Positions 5,360 to 28,454 of a DNA stretch of 28,454 nt are shown piece by piece. The first letter of the stretch is position 1; each line of letters begins with the position of its first letter. This DNA is from an uncultured Flavobacteriaceae bacterium. Lineage in GTDB: Bacteria; Bacteroidota; Bacteroidia; Flavobacteriales; Flavobacteriaceae. The notes under the pieces are model-generated. The model was not told the DNA's origin, did no database searches, and worked only from the letters and a program-made list of their open reading frames with translations. The stretch is taken from positions 1-28,454 of the forward strand of contig CAZQBE010000001.1 of assembly GCA_964591595.1 (NCBI GenBank), read 5' to 3'. Made by a program: the position numbers and the translations under genes.

Positions 5360-5728
5360 ATGGTTTTTAAGAAAGAAAAATTAAAAATAAAAAAACTTAT
5401 TGAACAATTGTTTCTGGAGGGACAATCTGTTTCTGCTTTTCCTTTGCTCTTAGTGTACCTTCCAATATCTTTTAATGATAATACAATTGTAAAAACAGGT
5501 TTTTCTGTTAGTAAGCGTAATTTTAAAAAAGCTGTTGATAGAAATAGAATAAAGCGATTATTAAAAGAATCTTATAGGCTGTACAAGGCTTCATATTTTA
5601 ACAACATTACAACACAATATGCGTTTATGATTTTGTATATTGGAAATGATAAGCCTACACTAAATCAAATAGAAACAAGAATGAACTTGTTATTTAAAAA
5701 ATTTAACGACGCTGTTTCTATTAAATAA
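5360..5728 (+). CDS. rnpA: Ribonuclease P protein component
   Basis: KEKL..KKLIEQLF, GFSVSKRNFKKAVDRNRIKR (RNR motif); 122 aa, basic. Confidence 0.9.
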   Translation: MVFKKEKLKIKKLIEQLFLEGQSVSAFPLLLVYLPISFNDNTIVKTGFSVSKRNFKKAVDRNRIKRLLKESYRLYKASYFNNITTQYAFMILYIGNDKPTLNQIETRMNLLFKKFNDAVSIK

Positions 5729-9644: not shown

Positions 9645-10079
9645 TTAACAAGAAACAGGAATCTTATCTACTCTATTCTGGTGTCTTCCGCCTTCAAAAG
9701 GCGTATTTAAAAATGTATCCACCATATCTAATGCTTGAGGTAAAGCGGTAAAACGTGCTGGAATACTTAAAATGTTTGCATTATTATGTTGTCTTGCAAG
9801 AGCAACTATTTCGGTTGTCCAACATAACGCTGCTCTTACGTCTTGGTGTTTATTTGCTGTCATAGAAGCTCCATTCCCACTTCCACAAATAATAATTCCT
9901 ATGTCTGATTTATTACTTTCAACATCTTCTGCTACTGGATGAATAAAATCAGGATAATCAACACTATCAGAAGTATCTGTTCCATAATTTGTAACTGTAA
10001 TACCTTTGGATTCTAGAAGTTTAATTATTGCAAATTTATATTCTGTTCCAGCATGATCGTTCCCTATTGAAATTTTCAT
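9645..10079 (-). CDS. rpiB: Ribose 5-phosphate isomerase B
   Basis: GNDHAG, VDYPD, ICGSGNG, ARQHNNAN, FEGGRH.NRV motifs. Confidence 0.95.
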   Translation of the reverse strand: MKISIGNDHAGTEYKFAIIKLLESKGITVTNYGTDTSDSVDYPDFIHPVAEDVESNKSDIGIIICGSGNGASMTANKHQDVRAALCWTTEIVALARQHNNANILSIPARFTALPQALDMVDTFLNTPFEGGRHQNRVDKIPVSC

Positions 10080-10658
10080 TTTTTAAAGATTATTTTAGTG
10101 TTTTCATGGCGATGAAAATCTAATTATTATTAAATTATAAAAGTACAAAATAAGGATTGTAAAAACACAACTGTTAATTACTATATTAATAAACTGTTAA
10201 TATCTAATGGTTATATTTTATAATTATTTTTTGTTATTTTTATAATTTTTATAAGAAAAAATGTCTATTTAAATTCTAAATATTTTTATGTAAAACAATT
10301 ACAATGTTATGAGTTAAAATTATATATATATAAACAATAAAATAAAAAATTATTATTAAAAAAAGCTGTTATCCTAGCTTTATAAAACTTGTTAATATTA
10401 TTAATTAAAAAGCTATCAATAAATACATTATACTATTAATAACTTGTTAATAGTGATATAATAAACAGTAGATAATGTATTTTCAAAGTAATTATATATA
10501 AAGTTATAGTTACTATTAACACACTATAATAAACATCATTTTATTTTAAATTTTAAAAAGATAAATGTTATTATAATATTAAATGTGAATAAACTAGCTT
10601 TTAGGATTTTTAAATTAATATATATAAATTAGTCGTTTGATTTTTAAACCTAAGAAAC
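10080..10658. other. Very AT-rich intergenic region with repeated TGTTAAT-type boxes; candidate replication origin
   Basis: TGTTAAT at 10172, 10195, 10390, 10445; CTATTAACA at 10513; TGTGAATAA at 10584-10592 (TTATTCACA on the minus strand, fits DnaA box TTWTNCACA). No ORF in the track. Confidence 0.4.
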
Positions 10659-11120
10659 ATGAAGAAACTACTACTTATTGTATTTTCATTACCAACATTA
10701 ATATTTTCTAAAATTCAAATAGGACAAAATATTAATGTAGAAGCAGCTCAAGATCAATCAGGATTAGGTGTTTCATTATCTTCAGACGGCACAATAGTTG
10801 CTACTGGTTCTCGCAGCAATGGTGTGAACGGAGCAAATTCAGGTCAAGTACGTGTCTATGATTTAAGTGCATTACTTTCTAGTAATGGTTTTGTGTTGTC
10901 TCAATTTAATATATACCCTAACCCAGTAAAAGAACAGTTTACTATTAAATTAAGTCAAGGATTAGAATTACAAAAAGTAAATATATATAACAGTTTAGGA
11001 CAGCTTATAAGTTCTACAACAAAAAATAGTATTAACACAGTTAATCTGTCTCAGGGACTTTACTTTATAGAAATTGAAACAACAAAAGGAAAAGCAACAA
11101 AAAAGATAATTATAGAATAA
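10659..11120 (+). CDS. Small T9SS (Por secretion) type A CTD protein with a single FG-GAP-like propeller repeat; possibly an internally deleted remnant
   Basis: Signal peptide, one repeat QIGQNINVEAAQDQSGLGVSLSSDGTIVATG..NSGQVRVY, then the CTD IYPNP..IYNSLGQ..GLYFIEI..KKIIIE. Confidence 0.8.
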   Translation: MKKLLLIVFSLPTLIFSKIQIGQNINVEAAQDQSGLGVSLSSDGTIVATGSRSNGVNGANSGQVRVYDLSALLSSNGFVLSQFNIYPNPVKEQFTIKLSQGLELQKVNIYNSLGQLISSTTKNSINTVNLSQGLYFIEIETTKGKATKKIIIE

Positions 11121-11311: not shown

Positions 11312-13534
11312 ATGACAAGAAAGAAAAAAAGGAAATCAAGTAACAAGATTTCTAACCTAACAAATACTATCTTAAGTATTTTAAAAAAAGAAATCAATAA
11401 ATCTTTTAATTACAAACAAATAGCTGCTAAACTTGGTGTAAACGATGCTAGTAGTAGAAATCAAATTATAAAAACCTTACAGCGTTTAAAAGCAAAGCAA
11501 GAGATTGAAGAAGTAGATAGAGGAAAATTTAAAGCTATTACATCATTAGAGTATTATACTGGAATTCTAGATATTTCAGCAAGAGGGTCTGGTTATGTAA
11601 TTAGTGAAGATTTTGAGGATGATATTTATATTGCTTCAAATAATATTAACAAAGCTTTAAATGGCGATGAGGTAGAACTCTATGTATATAAAAGGCGTAA
11701 ACGGGGAAAATTAGAAGGTGAAATAACCAAAGTAATTAAACGTGCTAAAACAGAGTATGTAGGTGTTATTCAAATACACAAAAACTATGCATTTTTAATT
11801 GCTGATAACACTAAAATGTATACCGATATTTTTATCCCTATCAATAAAATTAACAAAGCGGAAGATGGCGATAAAGTACTAGTAAAGTTTGAAGACTGGC
11901 CAGAAAAAGCAGATTCTCCTTATGGTAAAGTTATTAAAGTATTAGGAAAACCAGGAGAACACGATACAGAGATTCATTCCATTTTAGCTGAGTACGGCTT
12001 ACCTTATGAATTTTCTCAAGAAGTAGAAGAATACGCTAATAAAATAGACACTTCTATTAATACAGCCGAAATAAAAAAGCGACGTGACATGAGAAAGGTT
12101 TTAACCTTTACCATAGACCCTAAAGACGCTAAAGATTTTGATGATGCTTTATCTTTTCAAGTATTGAAAAACGGAAATTATGAAATAGGCATCCATATAG
12201 CAGATGTTTCACATTATTTACAAGAAGGCACTATTTTGGACGATGAGGCTTACGAGCGAGCAACATCTGTATATTTAGTAGATAGAGTCGTACCAATGCT
12301 TCCTGAAGTATTATCAAATAATGCGTGTTCTTTACGACCAAAAGAAGAAAAATTCACCTTTTCTGCAGTGTTTGAAATTAATGATAAAGCACAAATTAAA
12401 AACCAATGGTTTGGTCGTACAGTAACCTATAGCGATGCCCGTTTTGCTTACGAAGAAGCTCAGGAAATTATAGAAAAAAATGTCACGTTGAGCGAAGTCG
12501 AAACGTCTCAATTAAATACAACAATCCCTAAAGAAATTTCGATTACTGGAAAACAATACAATACAACTCTAGAAATTGCTCAAGCGGTTTTAAAATTAAA
12601 TCAACTTGCAAAAATTATGCGTAAACAGCGTATGCAATCAGGGGCAATATCGTTTGATAAGGTTGAAGTAAAATTTAATTTAGACGAGAATAGCAATCCA
12701 ATTAGTGTATTCTTTAAAACAAGTAAAGATGCCAATAAATTAATTGAAGAATTTATGCTTCTAGCAAACAAAAAAGTCGCAGAATTTATTGGAAAACAAA
12801 GTTCTAAGAAAACATTCGTGTATCGTGTTCATGATGAGCCAAATGACCAGAAACTCGCTGCTTTACAAAATATAGTGAATAAGTTTGGTTATAAACTCAA
12901 TTTTAAAGACCGAAAAAGCACAACCAGTTCTTTAAATAATTTATTAAAAGAAGTTAATGGTAAAAAAGAGCAAAATTTAGTAGACACCCTTACTATACGC
13001 ACCATGAGCAAGGCGGAATATACAACACATAATATAGGACATTATGGTCTAGCGTTTGATTATTATACACATTTTACATCACCAATACGGAGGTATCCAG
13101 ATGTAATGGTACATCGCTTATTACAATATTATTTAGACGGCAATAAGTCGGTTAATGAAGATGTTTTTGAAGAAAAATGCACACACTCGTCAAATATGGA
13201 AAACCTAGCCACAAAAGCCGAACGAGATTCTATAAAATACATGCAAGTTAAGTTTATGCAAGATCATAAGGACCAGGAATTCGCTGGTGTAATATCAGGT
13301 GTTACAGATTGGGGAATTTATGTGGAAATTATAGAAAATAAATGTGAAGGCATGGTACGTATTCGAGATATTAAAGACGACTATTATCGCTTTGATCAAG
13401 ACGAATATGCCCTAGTAGGAGAAGCTACAAAGAATACATATCAATTAGGAGATGAAGTGATTGTTAAAGTAAAACAAGCCGATTTAGTAAGAAAACATCT
13501 AGATTTTACGTTAATAGGTAAGAATGAGGCATAG
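11312..13534 (+). CDS. rnr: Ribonuclease R
   Basis: N-terminal HTH and cold-shock domains, TIDPKDAKDFDDA catalytic motif, VHIAD-like GIHIADV, HFTSPIRRYPD, C-terminal S1 domain. Confidence 0.95.
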   Translation: MTRKKKRKSSNKISNLTNTILSILKKEINKSFNYKQIAAKLGVNDASSRNQIIKTLQRLKAKQEIEEVDRGKFKAITSLEYYTGILDISARGSGYVISEDFEDDIYIASNNINKALNGDEVELYVYKRRKRGKLEGEITKVIKRAKTEYVGVIQIHKNYAFLIADNTKMYTDIFIPINKINKAEDGDKVLVKFEDWPEKADSPYGKVIKVLGKPGEHDTEIHSILAEYGLPYEFSQEVEEYANKIDTSINTAEIKKRRDMRKVLTFTIDPKDAKDFDDALSFQVLKNGNYEIGIHIADVSHYLQEGTILDDEAYERATSVYLVDRVVPMLPEVLSNNACSLRPKEEKFTFSAVFEINDKAQIKNQWFGRTVTYSDARFAYEEAQEIIEKNVTLSEVETSQLNTTIPKEISITGKQYNTTLEIAQAVLKLNQLAKIMRKQRMQSGAISFDKVEVKFNLDENSNPISVFFKTSKDANKLIEEFMLLANKKVAEFIGKQSSKKTFVYRVHDEPNDQKLAALQNIVNKFGYKLNFKDRKSTTSSLNNLLKEVNGKKEQNLVDTLTIRTMSKAEYTTHNIGHYGLAFDYYTHFTSPIRRYPDVMVHRLLQYYLDGNKSVNEDVFEEKCTHSSNMENLATKAERDSIKYMQVKFMQDHKDQEFAGVISGVTDWGIYVEIIENKCEGMVRIRDIKDDYYRFDQDEYALVGEATKNTYQLGDEVIVKVKQADLVRKHLDFTLIGKNEA
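12482..12505 (+). repeat. GTCA-tagged REP-like palindromic unit inserted in frame in rnr (encodes VTLSEVET)
   Basis: GTCA-CGTT-GAGCGAAGTCGA-AACG, with CGTT/AACG pairing. Matches the GTCAnnnTGAGCGnAGTCGAAnnn repeat I recall from Bacteroidota; exactly 8 codons. Confidence 0.7.
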
Positions 13535-14314: not shown

Positions 14315-14342
14315 AATGCTGAATATTATATTCAGCATTTTT
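14315..14342. promoter_or_regulatory. Perfect 12-bp inverted repeat followed by a T run (terminator, attenuator or operator)
   Basis: AATGCTGAATAT-T-ATATTCAGCATT then TTT, between the promoter motif and the LysE start. Confidence 0.5.
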
Positions 14343-14353
14343 ATTAAAGAACA

Positions 14354-15025
14354 ATGATAGAAGACATTCAAACAGCAATTCCTTTAGGTTTTTTTTTAGC
14401 CTTTATGATTGGCCCTGTTTTTTTTGTACTTCTTGAAACAAGTGTTACTAAAGGGTTTAGAGCGGCAGTTGCGTTTGATTTAGGTGTTATTATAGCAGAT
14501 ATTTTTTTTATTGGAATAGCATATTTCAGTAGTTACCAACTCTTAGAAAACTTAAGCAATCAACCAGGATTGTTTGTGTTTGGGGGCATGATAATAACCA
14601 TTTATGGGATTATTATTTTTCTTAAAAAACCAAAGAAAACCACAACAGAAGCAAGCGAAATACAATTTCCTAAAAACAATTATTTAGGATTATTCATAAA
14701 AGGATTTCTTCTTAATTTTATAAATATAGGAGTTTTAGTATTTTGGTTAGGTGTTATTATTATTACTGGTCCAAGTTTAGAAAATGATACCAACAGGTTC
14801 TTAGTGTTTTTTGGAACGATGATTTCAGCATATTTCTTAACCGATTTACTTAAGATACTGCTTGCGAAACAATTAAAAAGAAAACTAACACCAAATCGTA
14901 TTTTAAAAGTAAAGAAGCTGTTGGGTTTAATATTAATTATTTGTGGGTTTGTACTCATAGTAAAAGGGTTCTTACCTAAGGACAAACTAAACCCACAAGA
15001 GTTTATAGAAGAAATTAGCGAATAA
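14354..15025 (+). CDS. LysE/RhtB family amino-acid exporter
   Basis: FMIGPVFFVLLETS..GFRAA..G...AD; GFLLNFINIG..FW; six hydrophobic segments. Confidence 0.85.
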   Translation: MIEDIQTAIPLGFFLAFMIGPVFFVLLETSVTKGFRAAVAFDLGVIIADIFFIGIAYFSSYQLLENLSNQPGLFVFGGMIITIYGIIIFLKKPKKTTTEASEIQFPKNNYLGLFIKGFLLNFINIGVLVFWLGVIIITGPSLENDTNRFLVFFGTMISAYFLTDLLKILLAKQLKRKLTPNRILKVKKLLGLILIICGFVLIVKGFLPKDKLNPQEFIEEISE

Positions 15026-15054: not shown

Positions 15055-15059
15055 GGTTG

Positions 15060-15130
15060 AGGCGTCTAGCGGATTCGAACCGCTGTACAAGGTTTTGCAG
15101 ACCTCTGCCTAGCCACTCGGCCAAGACGCC
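15060..15130 (-). tRNA. tRNA-Cys (GCA)
   Basis: Minus strand reads GGCGTCTTGGCCGAGTGGCTAGGCAGAGGTCTGCAAAACCTTGTACAGCGGTTCGAATCCGCTAGACGCCT: 7-bp acceptor stem, anticodon loop CTGCAAA, GGTTCGAATCC T arm, discriminator U. CCA is not encoded (TCAA follows). Confidence 0.96.
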
Positions 15131-26567: not shown

Positions 26568-26583
26568 TGTTTCACGTGGAACG
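26568..26583. promoter_or_regulatory. parS centromere-like site
   Basis: TGTTTCACGTGGAACG versus the parS consensus TGTTNCACGTGAAACA; the position-12 G variant is a known one, so only the last base deviates. Confidence 0.8.
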
Positions 26584-26586
26584 TTT

Positions 26587-28454
26587 ATGAGTTTATTTCA
26601 AGACATATATGATGTAATTGTAGTTGGTGGTGGTCACGCGGGAAGCGAGGCAGCAGCAGCAGCAGCAAACATGGGGAGCAAAACCCTGCTCATCACGATG
26701 AGTCTGCAAAACATTGCACAAATGTCTTGCAACCCAGCAATGGGGGGAATTGCTAAAGGGCAAATTATACGCGAAATAGACGCACTTGGAGGTTATAGTG
26801 GTATTATAAGTGATACATCGGCCATACAATTTAAGATGCTTAACAAATCTAAAGGACCAGCAATGTGGAGCCCTCGAGTGCAAAGCGACAGAATGCGTTT
26901 TGCTGAAGATTGGAGATTGATGTTAGAAAGAACACCAAATCTTGATTTTTATCAAGAAATGGTTTCAGGGTTACTTGTCGACAATCATAAAATTATTGGA
27001 GTTACAACATCTTTAGGAGTTCAAATAAAAGCAAAAACCGTAGTCTTAACTAACGGAACGTTTTTAAATGGCTTGATTCATATAGGTGATAAAAATTTTG
27101 GAGGCGGAAGAGCAGGAGAGAGAGCCGCAACAGGAATTACAGAGCAACTTACATCTCTTGGGTTTGATTCTGGTAGAATGAAAACAGGAACTCCGCCAAG
27201 AGTAGATGGGCGCTCTCTAGATTTTTCTAAAATGATTGAACAACCTGGAGATGTCAATCCTGAGAAATTTTCATATTTAGATATTACAAAACCATTAGCG
27301 CACCAACGTTCTTGCTACATGACTTATACCAATCAAGAAGTTCATGACCTGCTTCGAGAAGGTTTTGATAAATCACCCATGTTTAATGGTAGGATTAAAA
27401 GCGTAGGTCCTCGCTATTGTCCATCGATAGAAGACAAAATTGATCGTTTTGCGGATAAAAGCAGGCATCAACTTTTTGTTGAGCCAGAAGGCTGGAACAC
27501 TGTCGAGGTTTATGTAAATGGGTTTTCCACATCTCTACCTGAAGATGTGCAGTTTAAAGCATTGCGTTCTGTAGTTGGTTTTGAAAATGTAAAATTTTTT
27601 AGGCCTGGTTATGCCATTGAGTATGATTATTTCCCCCCAACACAACTAAAACACACCCTTGAAACGAAGTTAGTTGAAGGGTTGCATTTTGCTGGACAAA
27701 TAAATGGAACCACAGGCTATGAGGAAGCGGCTTCACAAGGCTTAATGGCTGGGATAAATGCAAGTTTAAAGATTCAAGAAAAGGAGCCATTTATATTAAA
27801 AAGAGACGAAGCTTATATAGGTGTTTTAATAGATGATTTAATTACTAAAGGCACTGAAGAGCCTTATAGAATGTTTACCTCTCGTGCAGAATATAGAACG
27901 CTATTACGACAAGATAATGCAGATTTGCGATTAACGCCAAAAGGATTTAATCTTGGGTTAGCTAGTGAAAAGCGTTTAAAAAGAATGGAGGAAAAGCACA
28001 AACAAGCGGAACAATTTGTTCAATTTTTTAAAAACACTAGCGTTAAACCCTATGAAGCTAATCCTGTATTAGCATCTAAAAACTCAGCATTGGTAAAGCA
28101 ATCTGATAAAATGTTTAAACTCTTTACGAGACCCAATATAGATATTGATGACGTTAGAAAGTTTGATGCTGTCGAGCAATATATACAAGACAATAATCTG
28201 GATAAAGAGGTTATTGAGCAAACTGAAATTCAGGTAAAATATTCAGGATATATAGCCAAGGAAAAAAACAATGCTGATAAACTAAGCAGATTAGAATATG
28301 TTAAGATTCCAGACAATTTCGACTATTCTCGAATTAAGTCAATGAGTTTTGAGGCAAGAGAAAAGCTTAAATACATTCAACCAACATCAGTAGCTCAAGC
28401 ATCTAGAATTAGTGGTGTATCACCAAATGATATTTCTGTATTATTGGTTTACAT
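26587..28454 (+). CDS. mnmG: tRNA U34 carboxymethylaminomethyl modification enzyme MnmG/GidA (3' partial)
   Basis: ATG 26587: MSLFQDIYDVIVVGGGHAGSEAA, MSCNPAMGGIAKG, KTGTPPR, GPRYCPSIEDK, AGQINGTTGYEEAA, in frame to ..SGVSPNDISVLLVY at the window edge. Absent from the ORF track because the stop lies outside the window. Confidence 0.97.
   Translation, partial: MSLFQDIYDVIVVGGGHAGSEAAAAAANMGSKTLLITMSLQNIAQMSCNPAMGGIAKGQIIREIDALGGYSGIISDTSAIQFKMLNKSKGPAMWSPRVQSDRMRFAEDWRLMLERTPNLDFYQEMVSGLLVDNHKIIGVTTSLGVQIKAKTVVLTNGTFLNGLIHIGDKNFGGGRAGERAATGITEQLTSLGFDSGRMKTGTPPRVDGRSLDFSKMIEQPGDVNPEKFSYLDITKPLAHQRSCYMTYTNQEVHDLLREGFDKSPMFNGRIKSVGPRYCPSIEDKIDRFADKSRHQLFVEPEGWNTVEVYVNGFSTSLPEDVQFKALRSVVGFENVKFFRPGYAIEYDYFPPTQLKHTLETKLVEGLHFAGQINGTTGYEEAASQGLMAGINASLKIQEKEPFILKRDEAYIGVLIDDLITKGTEEPYRMFTSRAEYRTLLRQDNADLRLTPKGFNLGLASEKRLKRMEEKHKQAEQFVQFFKNTSVKPYEANPVLASKNSALVKQSDKMFKLFTRPNIDIDDVRKFDAVEQYIQDNNLDKEVIEQTEIQVKYSGYIAKEKNNADKLSRLEYVKIPDNFDYSRIKSMSFEAREKLKYIQPTSVAQASRISGVSPNDISVLLVY

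Follow-up and report, generated by a model that had tools for sequence, protein, structure and literature searches.

A conserved array of DnaA-box variants in the rpiB-rnr spacer is a candidate chromosomal origin, unlinked from dnaA, in Flavobacteriaceae

Is a very AT-rich spacer between rpiB (ribose-5-phosphate isomerase B) and rnr (RNase R), with no dnaA gene nearby, the chromosomal oriC (origin of replication) of an uncultured marine Flavobacteriaceae bacterium? The spacer occupies positions 10080-10658 of a 28,454-nucleotide stretch of this bacterium's DNA (GenBank assembly GCA_964591595.1, contig CAZQBE010000001.1, positions 1 to 28,454), which we call the window. An earlier note on the window had suggested that the spacer is an origin read by a DnaA of shifted specificity. 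Our results favor the first half of this suggestion, as the array of DnaA boxes is conserved, the cluster is the only one in 45 kb and the region is linked to parS and mnmG; we consider it likely that the spacer is the chromosomal oriC and that it is unlinked from dnaA. The second half found only partial support: canonical boxes are still used, and the reading of position 6 appears to be relaxed rather than shifted.

At 579 bp and 14.9% GC (85% A+T), the spacer agrees with what had been judged by eye (~580 bp, ~85% AT) and is the longest non-coding and the lowest-GC stretch both of the window and of a 44.8-kb composite, in which two metagenome contigs from this organism lengthen the window. 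It contains no open reading frame (ORF). The 7-mer TGTTAAT occurs on the plus strand at 10172, 10195, 10390 and 10445 and as an inverted copy at 10515-10521 (within CTATTAACA, 10513-10521), accompanied by TACTATTAATA at 10431 and a (TA)n run near 10321; we recovered each of these elements, and the single DnaA box, where the earlier note had placed them. The repeated word had been said to differ from the DnaA box mainly at positions 5 and 6, and these are indeed the only differences from TTATCCACA, position 5 being free in the classical consensus. Across the word family, seven or eight of the nine DnaA-box positions agree, and position 6 is the sole systematic change. By the classical definition of a DnaA box (TTATNCACA, with C at position 6 and an invariant 3′ ACA), the array as a whole does not qualify: five of its six strong boxes (B1, B2, B3, B5 and B6) carry A at position 6, and only B7 counts as canonical. 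Judged by orthology, those five nevertheless act as DnaA boxes do.

We determined how often such a cluster would arise by chance. Because the spacer is far AT-richer than the window, window-wide shuffles were uninformative, and local shuffles were used instead. Dinucleotide shuffles of the spacer itself contained 0.65 ± 0.78 copies of the 7-mer, near the ~0.5 that had been reckoned by hand, compared to the 5 observed (P ~6e-4). A post-hoc null, in which any G/C-containing 7-mer may reach 5 copies, gave P ~0.12; thus, the window alone is suggestive rather than conclusive. The generalised box TATN[AC]ACA occurs 6 times in the spacer versus 0.69 expected, a count reached in 0/200 shuffles.

A search for RpiB in species-representative genomes yielded 80 Flavobacteriaceae loci (individual loci bear L numbers below). 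The window's own species was not among these; the best match, at 85% identity, came from Xanthomarina and Formosa. Divergent rpiB and rnr genes adjoin each other in 70 of the 80 loci, with an AT-rich spacer between them that seldom falls below 500 bp, and GC content of the spacers is 13-15%. Closed genomes with the spacer include Olleya sp. R77988 (NZ_CP138988.1, near 876 kb), Lacinutrix neustonica (NZ_CP113088.1, near 2.286 Mb) and Kordia algicida (NZ_CP142125.1, near 0.149 Mb). Forty-nine spacers were free of inserted genes, and 47 of these contain TGTTAAT. In the 49 clean spacers, TATN[A/C]ACA boxes number 244, compared to 32.6 expected from dinucleotide shuffles (z ~39), and 48 of the spacers are individually above z = 2, so that the conservation of boxes in other rpiB-rnr gaps, which the earlier note had named as a check, is evident. 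TGTTAAT is present at 4.2 per kb in the spacers, while the remaining non-coding DNA of these loci has 0.68 per kb. Comparison with this same control, which replaced a maximal-order Markov k-mer test that had soaked the signal into sub-words, revealed TTATTAAC, TTATCAAC and TGTTAATA as the top enriched 8-mers, with TGTTGATA also enriched, at 7-9 times the control density. All four words are pieces of a single 9-mer, TTAT[T/C]AACA, and the box logo reads g-Y-T-A-T-Y-A-A-C-A.

Box order, orientation and spacing are likewise conserved among orthologous spacers. From the rpiB side, a left cluster of minus-oriented boxes is followed by an A/T-only stretch and a tight central group with the consensus gTTATTAACA-nn-TGTTAATAg, often with an extra TTGTCAACA before it (alignment consensus gTTATTAACAnnTGTTAATAg). 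After the central group come a minus box ~55 bp on, a plus box ~68 bp further and a last minus box 60-71 bp beyond. In the window, the left cluster, which recurs in many orthologous spacers, consists of B1 (TAATTAACA, 10172-10180, minus) and B2 (ATATTAACA, 10195-10203, minus), with a weaker box (TTATTAATA, 10184-10192) beside B2. Within the box-poor, nearly pure A/T stretch at 10204-10385 are the (TA)n run and the spacer's least stable 40-mer. At 10379-10398 is a remnant of the inverted pair that in the family reads TTATTAACA-nn-TGTTAATA; its left half has decayed (TTTATAAAA, 10379-10387), while its right half, B3 (ATATTAACA, 10390-10398, minus), is intact. B5 (CTATTAACA, 10445-10453, minus), which has a weak box beside it (TTATTAATA, 10434-10442), is the counterpart of a conserved TGTTAATTA block ~55 bp after the inverted pair. 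B6 (CTATTAACA, 10513-10521, plus), the sole strong plus-oriented box, has a conserved AAAGTTATA(c/g)n block before it and a weak tandem box (TAATAAACA, 10527-10535) after it. A conserved A/T block (10536-10583; family consensus CATCATTTTTATTTTTTAAATTTTAAAAGAAAA) then lies between B6 and the convergent B7 (TTATTCACA, 10584-10592, minus), a near-canonical DnaA box one mismatch from TTATCCACA.

To what protein do these words belong? The last box of the array, at the site of B7, is the perfect canonical TGTGGATAA in 5 genomes, TGTGAATAA in the window and one other genome, TGTTGATAA in 8 and TGTTAATAA in 7. Since variant and canonical forms interchange at an orthologous site, the "non-canonical" word is a variant of the DnaA box, TTATN[A/C]ACA. 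After correction for composition, boxes with A and with C at position 6 are over-represented alike in the family spacers (TATCAACA, observed/expected 12.0; TATCCACA, 12.3), and TATTAACA (9.7) and TATTCACA (5.7) are also over-represented. Words with T or G at this position are not enriched in these spacers (1.2 or lower counts). In the major groove, an amino group is exposed by A and by C, and recognition at position 6 may tolerate either amino base, with AT-rich genomes having drifted toward A. As A and C are equally enriched and canonical boxes remain in use, recognition by DnaA at position 6 looks relaxed (A or C), or amino-base-specific, rather than shifted.

Near-canonical boxes are also found at dnaA. 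Among the dnaA loci L169-L248, 69 are full-length, and their promoters carry a box of the form TT[G/A/T]TTCACA, fused to a -7-like TATTTG and ~95 bp upstream of the start codon (locus position ~5905). This box is TTGTTCACA in 62/69 loci, TTATTCACA in 4/69 and TTTTTCACA in 3/69; TTATTCACA, the 9-mer of B7, is the conserved box in Flavobacterium dnaA promoters. The element looks like a conserved autoregulatory DnaA box that overlaps the promoter. Because dnaA promoters carry near-canonical boxes, such boxes must still be read.

We inspected the DnaA protein itself, as the earlier note had advised. An approximate Bacteroidota-like DnaA sequence, used purely as bait, retrieved 120 Flavobacteriaceae DnaA proteins of 475 amino acids, and domain IV was aligned to B. 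subtilis DnaA (PDB 8BTG) and to the E. coli sequence. Residues R399, R407, Q408, D433, H434 and H439 are conserved, and P423A and T435A are present in 120/120 family proteins. Residues are numbered as in E. coli DnaA (entry 1J1V), and their assignment to bases is presumed. Although both substitutions are fixed in the family, both positions vary among relatives. Of the 146 nearest 50%-identity representatives, 76 have Ser, 34 Ala and 31 Thr at position 435, while at position 423 the counts are K 55, S 22, Q 14, T 12, A 11 and P 6. Position 435 is Ser in Chryseobacterium and Eisenibacter and Ala in one Bacteroidales cluster. Since the two positions vary so widely, we draw no causal link to the box variant; T435A is a candidate determinant of how position 6 is read.

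Counterpart clusters of other lineages form a gradient from canonical to A6 boxes (those with A at position 6). In Chryseobacterium and Kaistella (Weeksellaceae), canonical and A6 boxes occur together in a cluster between mnmG and rpiB. The Roseivirga (Cytophagales) cluster, ~2.5 kb downstream of mnmG, contains TTATCCACA, TTATTCACA (twice), CTATTCACA, TTATGCACA and ATATCCACA. Seven canonical-type boxes, partly at the end of a coding region, occupy 14330-14665 of the Roseivirga seohaensis locus (L162), and this cluster is likely the Cytophagales counterpart of the origin.

An origin also needs a place to open, and we examined duplex stability along the spacers. The window's least stable 40-mer, at 10319-10358 (ΔG -33.9 kcal/mol), contains the (TA)n run, and this minimum is not positionally conserved in orthologous spacers. 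Counted from the start of B6, the least stable 40-mer begins 23-31 bp further on in 17 of 33 orthologous spacers; the minimum of the mean stability profile falls there too, at the equivalent of window positions 10536-10583. The block at 10536-10583, between B6 and B7, is the best candidate for a DNA-unwinding element. We also applied a search rule for the basal unwinding system (BUS) of the B. subtilis type, which calls for a box, a spacer of at most 16 bp and three or more 3′-NAN-5′ trios (PMC8287927). A formal hit is given by B6, the weak tandem box and, after 13 nt of spacer in total, ATC ATT TTA TTT. GAT-type trios and a GC cluster are missing from it, and DNA of 85% A+T yields such runs by chance. 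In its box, weak tandem box, 13-nt spacer and at least four NTN triplets in A/T-rich DNA, the arrangement loosely resembles the B. subtilis-type BUS (PMC8287927, PMC6669920); it differs in that the triplets are not the preferred 3′-GAT-5′, no GC-rich cluster is present and B7 faces B6.

The spacer stands out from its surroundings. With 6 boxes per 500 bp, it is the densest cluster in the 44.8-kb composite, where the next best has 3. In an unbiased box-density scan of 80 mnmG-centered 22-kb loci, the rnr-rpiB spacer, at 5-8 boxes per 500 bp, ranked highest in each of the six loci that fully contain it and reached 3 in a seventh (L148). Those mnmG loci that have neither the spacer nor a relocated or lineage-specific cluster contain 0-3 boxes per 500 bp. 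At dnaA, 68 of 80 loci have 0-2 boxes per 500 bp, and the space upstream of dnaA amounts to just ~100-200 bp; thus, no rival origin lies beside this gene. The dnaA gene, which the earlier note had found not to be adjacent, is absent from both the window and the 45-kb composite; on the single contig shared between the scans, dnaA and rpiB are 1.14 Mb apart.

The neighborhood bears other marks of an origin. Sites for parS mark the origin-proximal domain. As had been noted, parS and mnmG are 16 kb from the spacer: a parS-like site (TGTTTCACGTGGAACG, 26568-26583, 2 mismatches) is directly upstream of mnmG, a gene that starts at 26587 and is cut off by the end of the window. Since the gaps that flank mnmG are 73 and 32 bp, the origin cannot be literally "at mnmG" in the window genome. 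Sites matching TGTT[T/C]CACGTG[A/G]AACA bracket mnmG in 72 of 80 loci (155 sites; Flavobacteriales and Cytophagales), immediately upstream and downstream of the gene (L089-L168, at ~9800-10000 and 11800-12200), compared to 1 in the 80 rpiB loci and 0 in the 80 dnaA loci. The mnmG gene appears to be the conserved parS carrier of the order, and on shared contigs it is ~10-20 kb from the spacer. By parS, mnmG, rnpA (5360-5728) and similar markers, the spacer is origin-proximal, and it combines a DnaA-box cluster in non-coding DNA with a computed AT-rich element beside the boxes.

In two loci from independent assemblies, L126 (5510-6265) and L100 (5495-6217), a homologous module occupies a ~730-bp gap between gltX and a large ORF. 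The relocated module has kept the inverted pair as well as the TGTTAATTA box and a CTATTAACAaaCAATAATAAC...ATTTTAAAAATTTTAAAAAAAGAAAAA block. In both loci rnr is downstream of mnmG. In L126 it has 240 bp upstream, a cation-efflux gene directly after it and no rpiB between, and rpiB was found neither beside the module nor beside rnr. A promoter or leader of rnr or rpiB would be expected to move along with its gene, and the module did not.

Published predictions place origins in the same neighborhood. Genome papers that use GC skew or Ori-Finder put the origin of Mariniflexile litorale at mnmG, which leaves both rrn (ribosomal RNA) operons on leading strands (PMC11278836), and the origin of Algorimicrobium bowmanii is also reported at mnmG (PMC12843772). 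In Flavobacterium enshiense, the origin is reported at gltX, with dnaA 710 kb away (PMC9867689). All three papers remark that dnaA is not at the origin. In Elizabethkingia a 649-bp oriC is predicted 1.9 Mb from dnaA (PMC8994065). The text on M. litorale places oriC by mnmG and the terminus by leuB, while the legend to its Figure 3 has the two reversed (PMC11278836); one of these is a slip, and it bears on polarity. Both mnmG and gltX are within the resolution of GC skew (10-20 kb) of the spacer. In three Flavobacterium loci (L103, L137 and L138), the spacer between gltX and the large ORF (at ~5.7 kb, 159-177 bp) contains 2-3 boxes. These boxes may be the reason for the F. enshiense call, or they may form a secondary DnaA site.

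We next consider strand asymmetry. Across the composite, fourfold-site AT skew of the plus strand is negative in 11/13 informative genes left of the spacer and positive in 19/20 on the right, regardless of the gene's own strand; one gene per side is exactly zero. The change-point is at 8.65 kb, with a log-likelihood ratio of 19.8 versus a null maximum of 9.4, and its support interval (8.2-13.1 kb) includes the spacer and excludes gltX and mnmG. Thus, the impression by eye that skew does not switch holds for GC skew but not for AT skew at fourfold sites. L145 repeats the pattern of the window, with the switch at the spacer. Pooling 70 loci, coding-strand AT skew is -0.05 in genes that point away from the spacer and -0.12 to -0.13 in those that point toward it, on both sides. 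In our tally from the gene table of the composite, ~65% of coding length on the left side points left and ~73% on the right side points right. Because the skews are inconsistent across the family, we used skew only as supporting evidence for the window genome; polarity was judged from parS, gene orientation and published whole-genome analyses.

Several observations weigh against the spacer as origin. Fourfold-site GC skew shows no switch, either in the window genome or family-wide. Leading strands are classically rich in G and T, and the polarity of the AT skew here, with A-rich genes pointing away, is the opposite; moreover, its sign is reversed in L133 and L136. In L126 and L100, the AT-skew switch is close to rnr, and the relocated module is 7-9 kb away from it. 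(Between the two, the large ORF, ybeY and mnmG have an unusual T-richness, at -0.33 to -0.48, and gene orientation there favors the module.) The sole nearby tRNA gene, for tRNA-Cys (15059-15130), points toward the spacer; with this one orthologous gene in reach, the orientation of rRNA and tRNA genes was uninformative as a polarity marker. The resemblance to a DnaA-trio/BUS arrangement is indistinguishable from AT-rich background, the published Ori-Finder calls name mnmG or gltX rather than rpiB-rnr as the neighbor, and a cluster of DnaA boxes outside an origin, of the datA or DARS kind, would share several of the features described above.

This last point supplies the strongest alternative, which we nonetheless judge unlikely: the spacer would titrate or recycle DnaA, as datA and DARS do, or contain DnaA-regulated divergent promoters for rpiB and rnr, with the true origin in a nearby gap such as those by mnmG or gltX. 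The Ori-Finder-based papers, the displaced skew switch of L126 and L100, the 2-3 boxes in the short gltX-proximal spacer of Flavobacterium species and the regulatory use of DnaA boxes elsewhere, as at the dnaA promoter, are all compatible with it. However, 3 boxes per 500 bp is the most that any other gap in 45 kb contains, and none has a comparable AT content; the gaps at mnmG are only 73 and 32 bp in the window genome, and the gltX-proximal spacer is 68-270 bp in most genomes. The spacer has a conserved weak-duplex block between convergent boxes, its module persists apart from rnr and rpiB, and no second cluster was seen in the 80 dnaA loci or in the mnmG loci that lack the spacer. The published calls at mnmG and gltX differ from ours by no more than the resolution of GC skew. 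The datA and DARS loci of E. coli are short, have no extremely AT-rich block for unwinding and are not known to be conserved family-wide with a fixed architecture. The spacer is like them in being a DnaA-box cluster outside dnaA and unlike them in having both an AT-rich block and an architecture fixed throughout the family.

It is less probable still that the array serves another protein, such as a transcription factor or nucleoid protein, or is the rnr promoter or a long 5′ untranslated region, with its likeness to DnaA boxes accidental. The near-palindrome TTATTAACA-nn-TGTTAATA of the family does have the shape typical of a dimeric regulator's site, and the spacer must hold the promoters of rpiB and the downstream genes. 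Yet perfect TGTGGATAA boxes occupy orthologous positions, the Roseivirga and Weeksellaceae counterparts use canonical TTATCCACA and TTATTCACA, and L126 and L100 keep the module without rnr or rpiB. Agreement at 7-8 of 9 DnaA-box positions, with a systematic change only where A and C share an amino group, also argues against accident. In addition, neither a strict Bacteroidota -7 promoter element (TAnnTTTG) nor, at the gathering threshold, an Rfam family occurs in the spacer; as the sole Rfam match reported is the tRNA-Cys gene, the rnr leader matches no curated family of structured non-coding RNAs or riboswitches.

A terminus, or point of fork convergence, is a very improbable reading of the spacer. 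Taken by the classical rule, a left plus strand that is T-rich and slightly G-rich and a right one that is A-rich and slightly C-rich would indicate convergence. Against this, conserved parS pairs are 16 kb away, genes diverge from the spacer, and published whole-genome skews, which leave rrn operons on leading strands, assign the origin to this neighborhood. The element consists of DnaA boxes, and no dif-like site (28 bp, for XerC/D) was found beyond chance, the best matches to the consensus sequences used being no better than those in shuffled sequence. The polarity of the skew is inconsistent among relatives. Gene order around the spacer is conserved across many genera, while termini are usually more variable in gene order. 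Lastly, chance clustering of an A/T-rich word in low-complexity DNA, with which the post-hoc probability from the window alone would be compatible, is refuted by the family-wide excess and by the conserved positions and orientations of the boxes.

A model that accommodates an origin at the spacer can be drawn from these comparisons, and we infer that DnaA binding, unwinding and origin firing would all take place there. DnaA would bind an array of TTATN[A/C]ACA 9-mers, that is, the classical box in which position 6 may also be A, in this AT-rich family usually the preferred base. The array would consist of the left cluster (B1 and B2), a central group (the inverted-pair remnant B3, plus B5) and the convergent pair B6 and B7, with duplex opening and helicase loading in the ~45-bp weak A/T block between B6 and B7. 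The dnaA gene, elsewhere on the chromosome, would have its own near-canonical promoter box for autoregulation. Extended to the lineage, the proposal becomes more tentative, and on balance we hold it somewhat doubtful: Flavobacteriaceae, and less so other Flavobacteriales, may initiate at a dnaA-unlinked origin of mostly TTAT[T/C]AACA boxes, where a DnaA with Ala in place of the recognition-helix Thr435 reads position 6 as an amino base (A or C) and the duplex opens in an A/T block clamped by convergent boxes, unlike the E. coli and B. subtilis paradigms.

How would such an origin compare with known systems? In E. coli, oriC is between gidA/mnmG and mioC, ~42 kb from dnaA. The spacer resembles it in being a compact non-coding array of DnaA boxes with an AT-rich unwinding element adjacent or embedded, in its lack of linkage to dnaA, in its mnmG neighborhood and in having boxes of opposite orientation that bracket part of the element. 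In contrast to E. coli oriC, its boxes have mostly A, not C, at position 6, it is ~16 kb from mnmG rather than adjacent, and its candidate unwinding block is between convergent boxes, not at one edge. On reading the sequence we noticed neither GATC clusters nor 13-mer repeats in the spacer, although no dedicated search was made. Lineage-specific DnaA boxes have precedents in TTGTCCACA of Mycobacterium, TTTTCCACA of cyanobacteria and the 12-mer of Thermotoga. The likeness is a family-level change in a 9-mer consensus that is read by the lineage's own DnaA. In these examples, however, the variation is at positions 1-5 and CACA is kept, while the spacer boxes vary at position 6 and canonical boxes are also used.

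Predictions of the Ori-Finder/DoriC type for Flavobacteriales agree with ours in the neighborhood, the lack of linkage to dnaA and an intergenic element of ~650 bp. Unlike our analysis, they count boxes with at most one mismatch from TTATCCACA, and in the portions of these sources available to us neither the rpiB-rnr spacer nor the TTATTAACA class nor the conserved architecture is mentioned. The searchable literature yielded no account of TTATTAACA-type boxes or of the rnr-rpiB spacer as an origin (DoriC may list the interval) and no experimentally characterized Bacteroidota origin. To our knowledge, no such origin has been characterized.

As a proposed oriC, the element itself is of an ordinary kind. 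In AT-rich genomes, predictors that count only boxes with at most one mismatch see one to three of them and report the nearest indicator gene (mnmG or gltX). The family-wide box grammar TTATN[A/C]ACA, together with the module, supplies hundreds of Flavobacteriaceae from marine and fresh water with a candidate origin that is precisely placed and can be tested. Should the more tentative lineage-wide proposal hold, the phylum Bacteroidota would gain its first defined origin architecture and DnaA-box grammar. The grammar and module would sharpen growth-rate estimates from metagenome coverage (peak-to-trough ratios), permit correct rotation of genome records, for which a start at dnaA would be wrong in these genomes, and help the construction of oriC-based replicating vectors in genetically difficult Flavobacteria. 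The family is also a natural experiment on how DnaA reads box position 6. If recognition there is relaxed, boxes with C6 or A6 should be bound and those with T6 or G6 should not, a prediction that can be posed with the words TTATCCACA, TTATTCACA, TTATCAACA, TTATTAACA, TTATTTACA and TTATTGACA.

As for the genes around the spacer, rpiB (9645-10079, minus; NCBIfam NF004051/TIGR01120, E 9e-52) forms the left flank and is transcribed away from it. The customary right flank in the family, rnr (11312-13534, plus; TIGR02063, E 3e-224), is separated from the spacer in the window by a small ORF of 153 amino acids (10659-11120, plus) with a type IX secretion system (T9SS) C-terminal sorting domain (TIGR04183, E 1e-15). 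At this position, relatives of the T9SS ORF occur only in L002, L031 and L038, where they are larger (~480 amino acids), and the 153-amino-acid ORF looks like a lineage-specific insertion or a remnant. The tRNA-Cys gene points toward the spacer in the window and in 29 related loci, and would be head-on to replication if the spacer is the origin. Among sequencing runs, the sequence was found solely in DNA metagenomes, kept as contigs. Two independent metagenome contigs of the same organism end nearby, one (L086) 535 bp past rpiB and the other (L085) inside the T9SS ORF, which suggests that assemblies tend to break in the extremely AT-rich DNA of the spacer. Over its overlap with the window, L085 is 98.8% identical and thus comes from a different strain.

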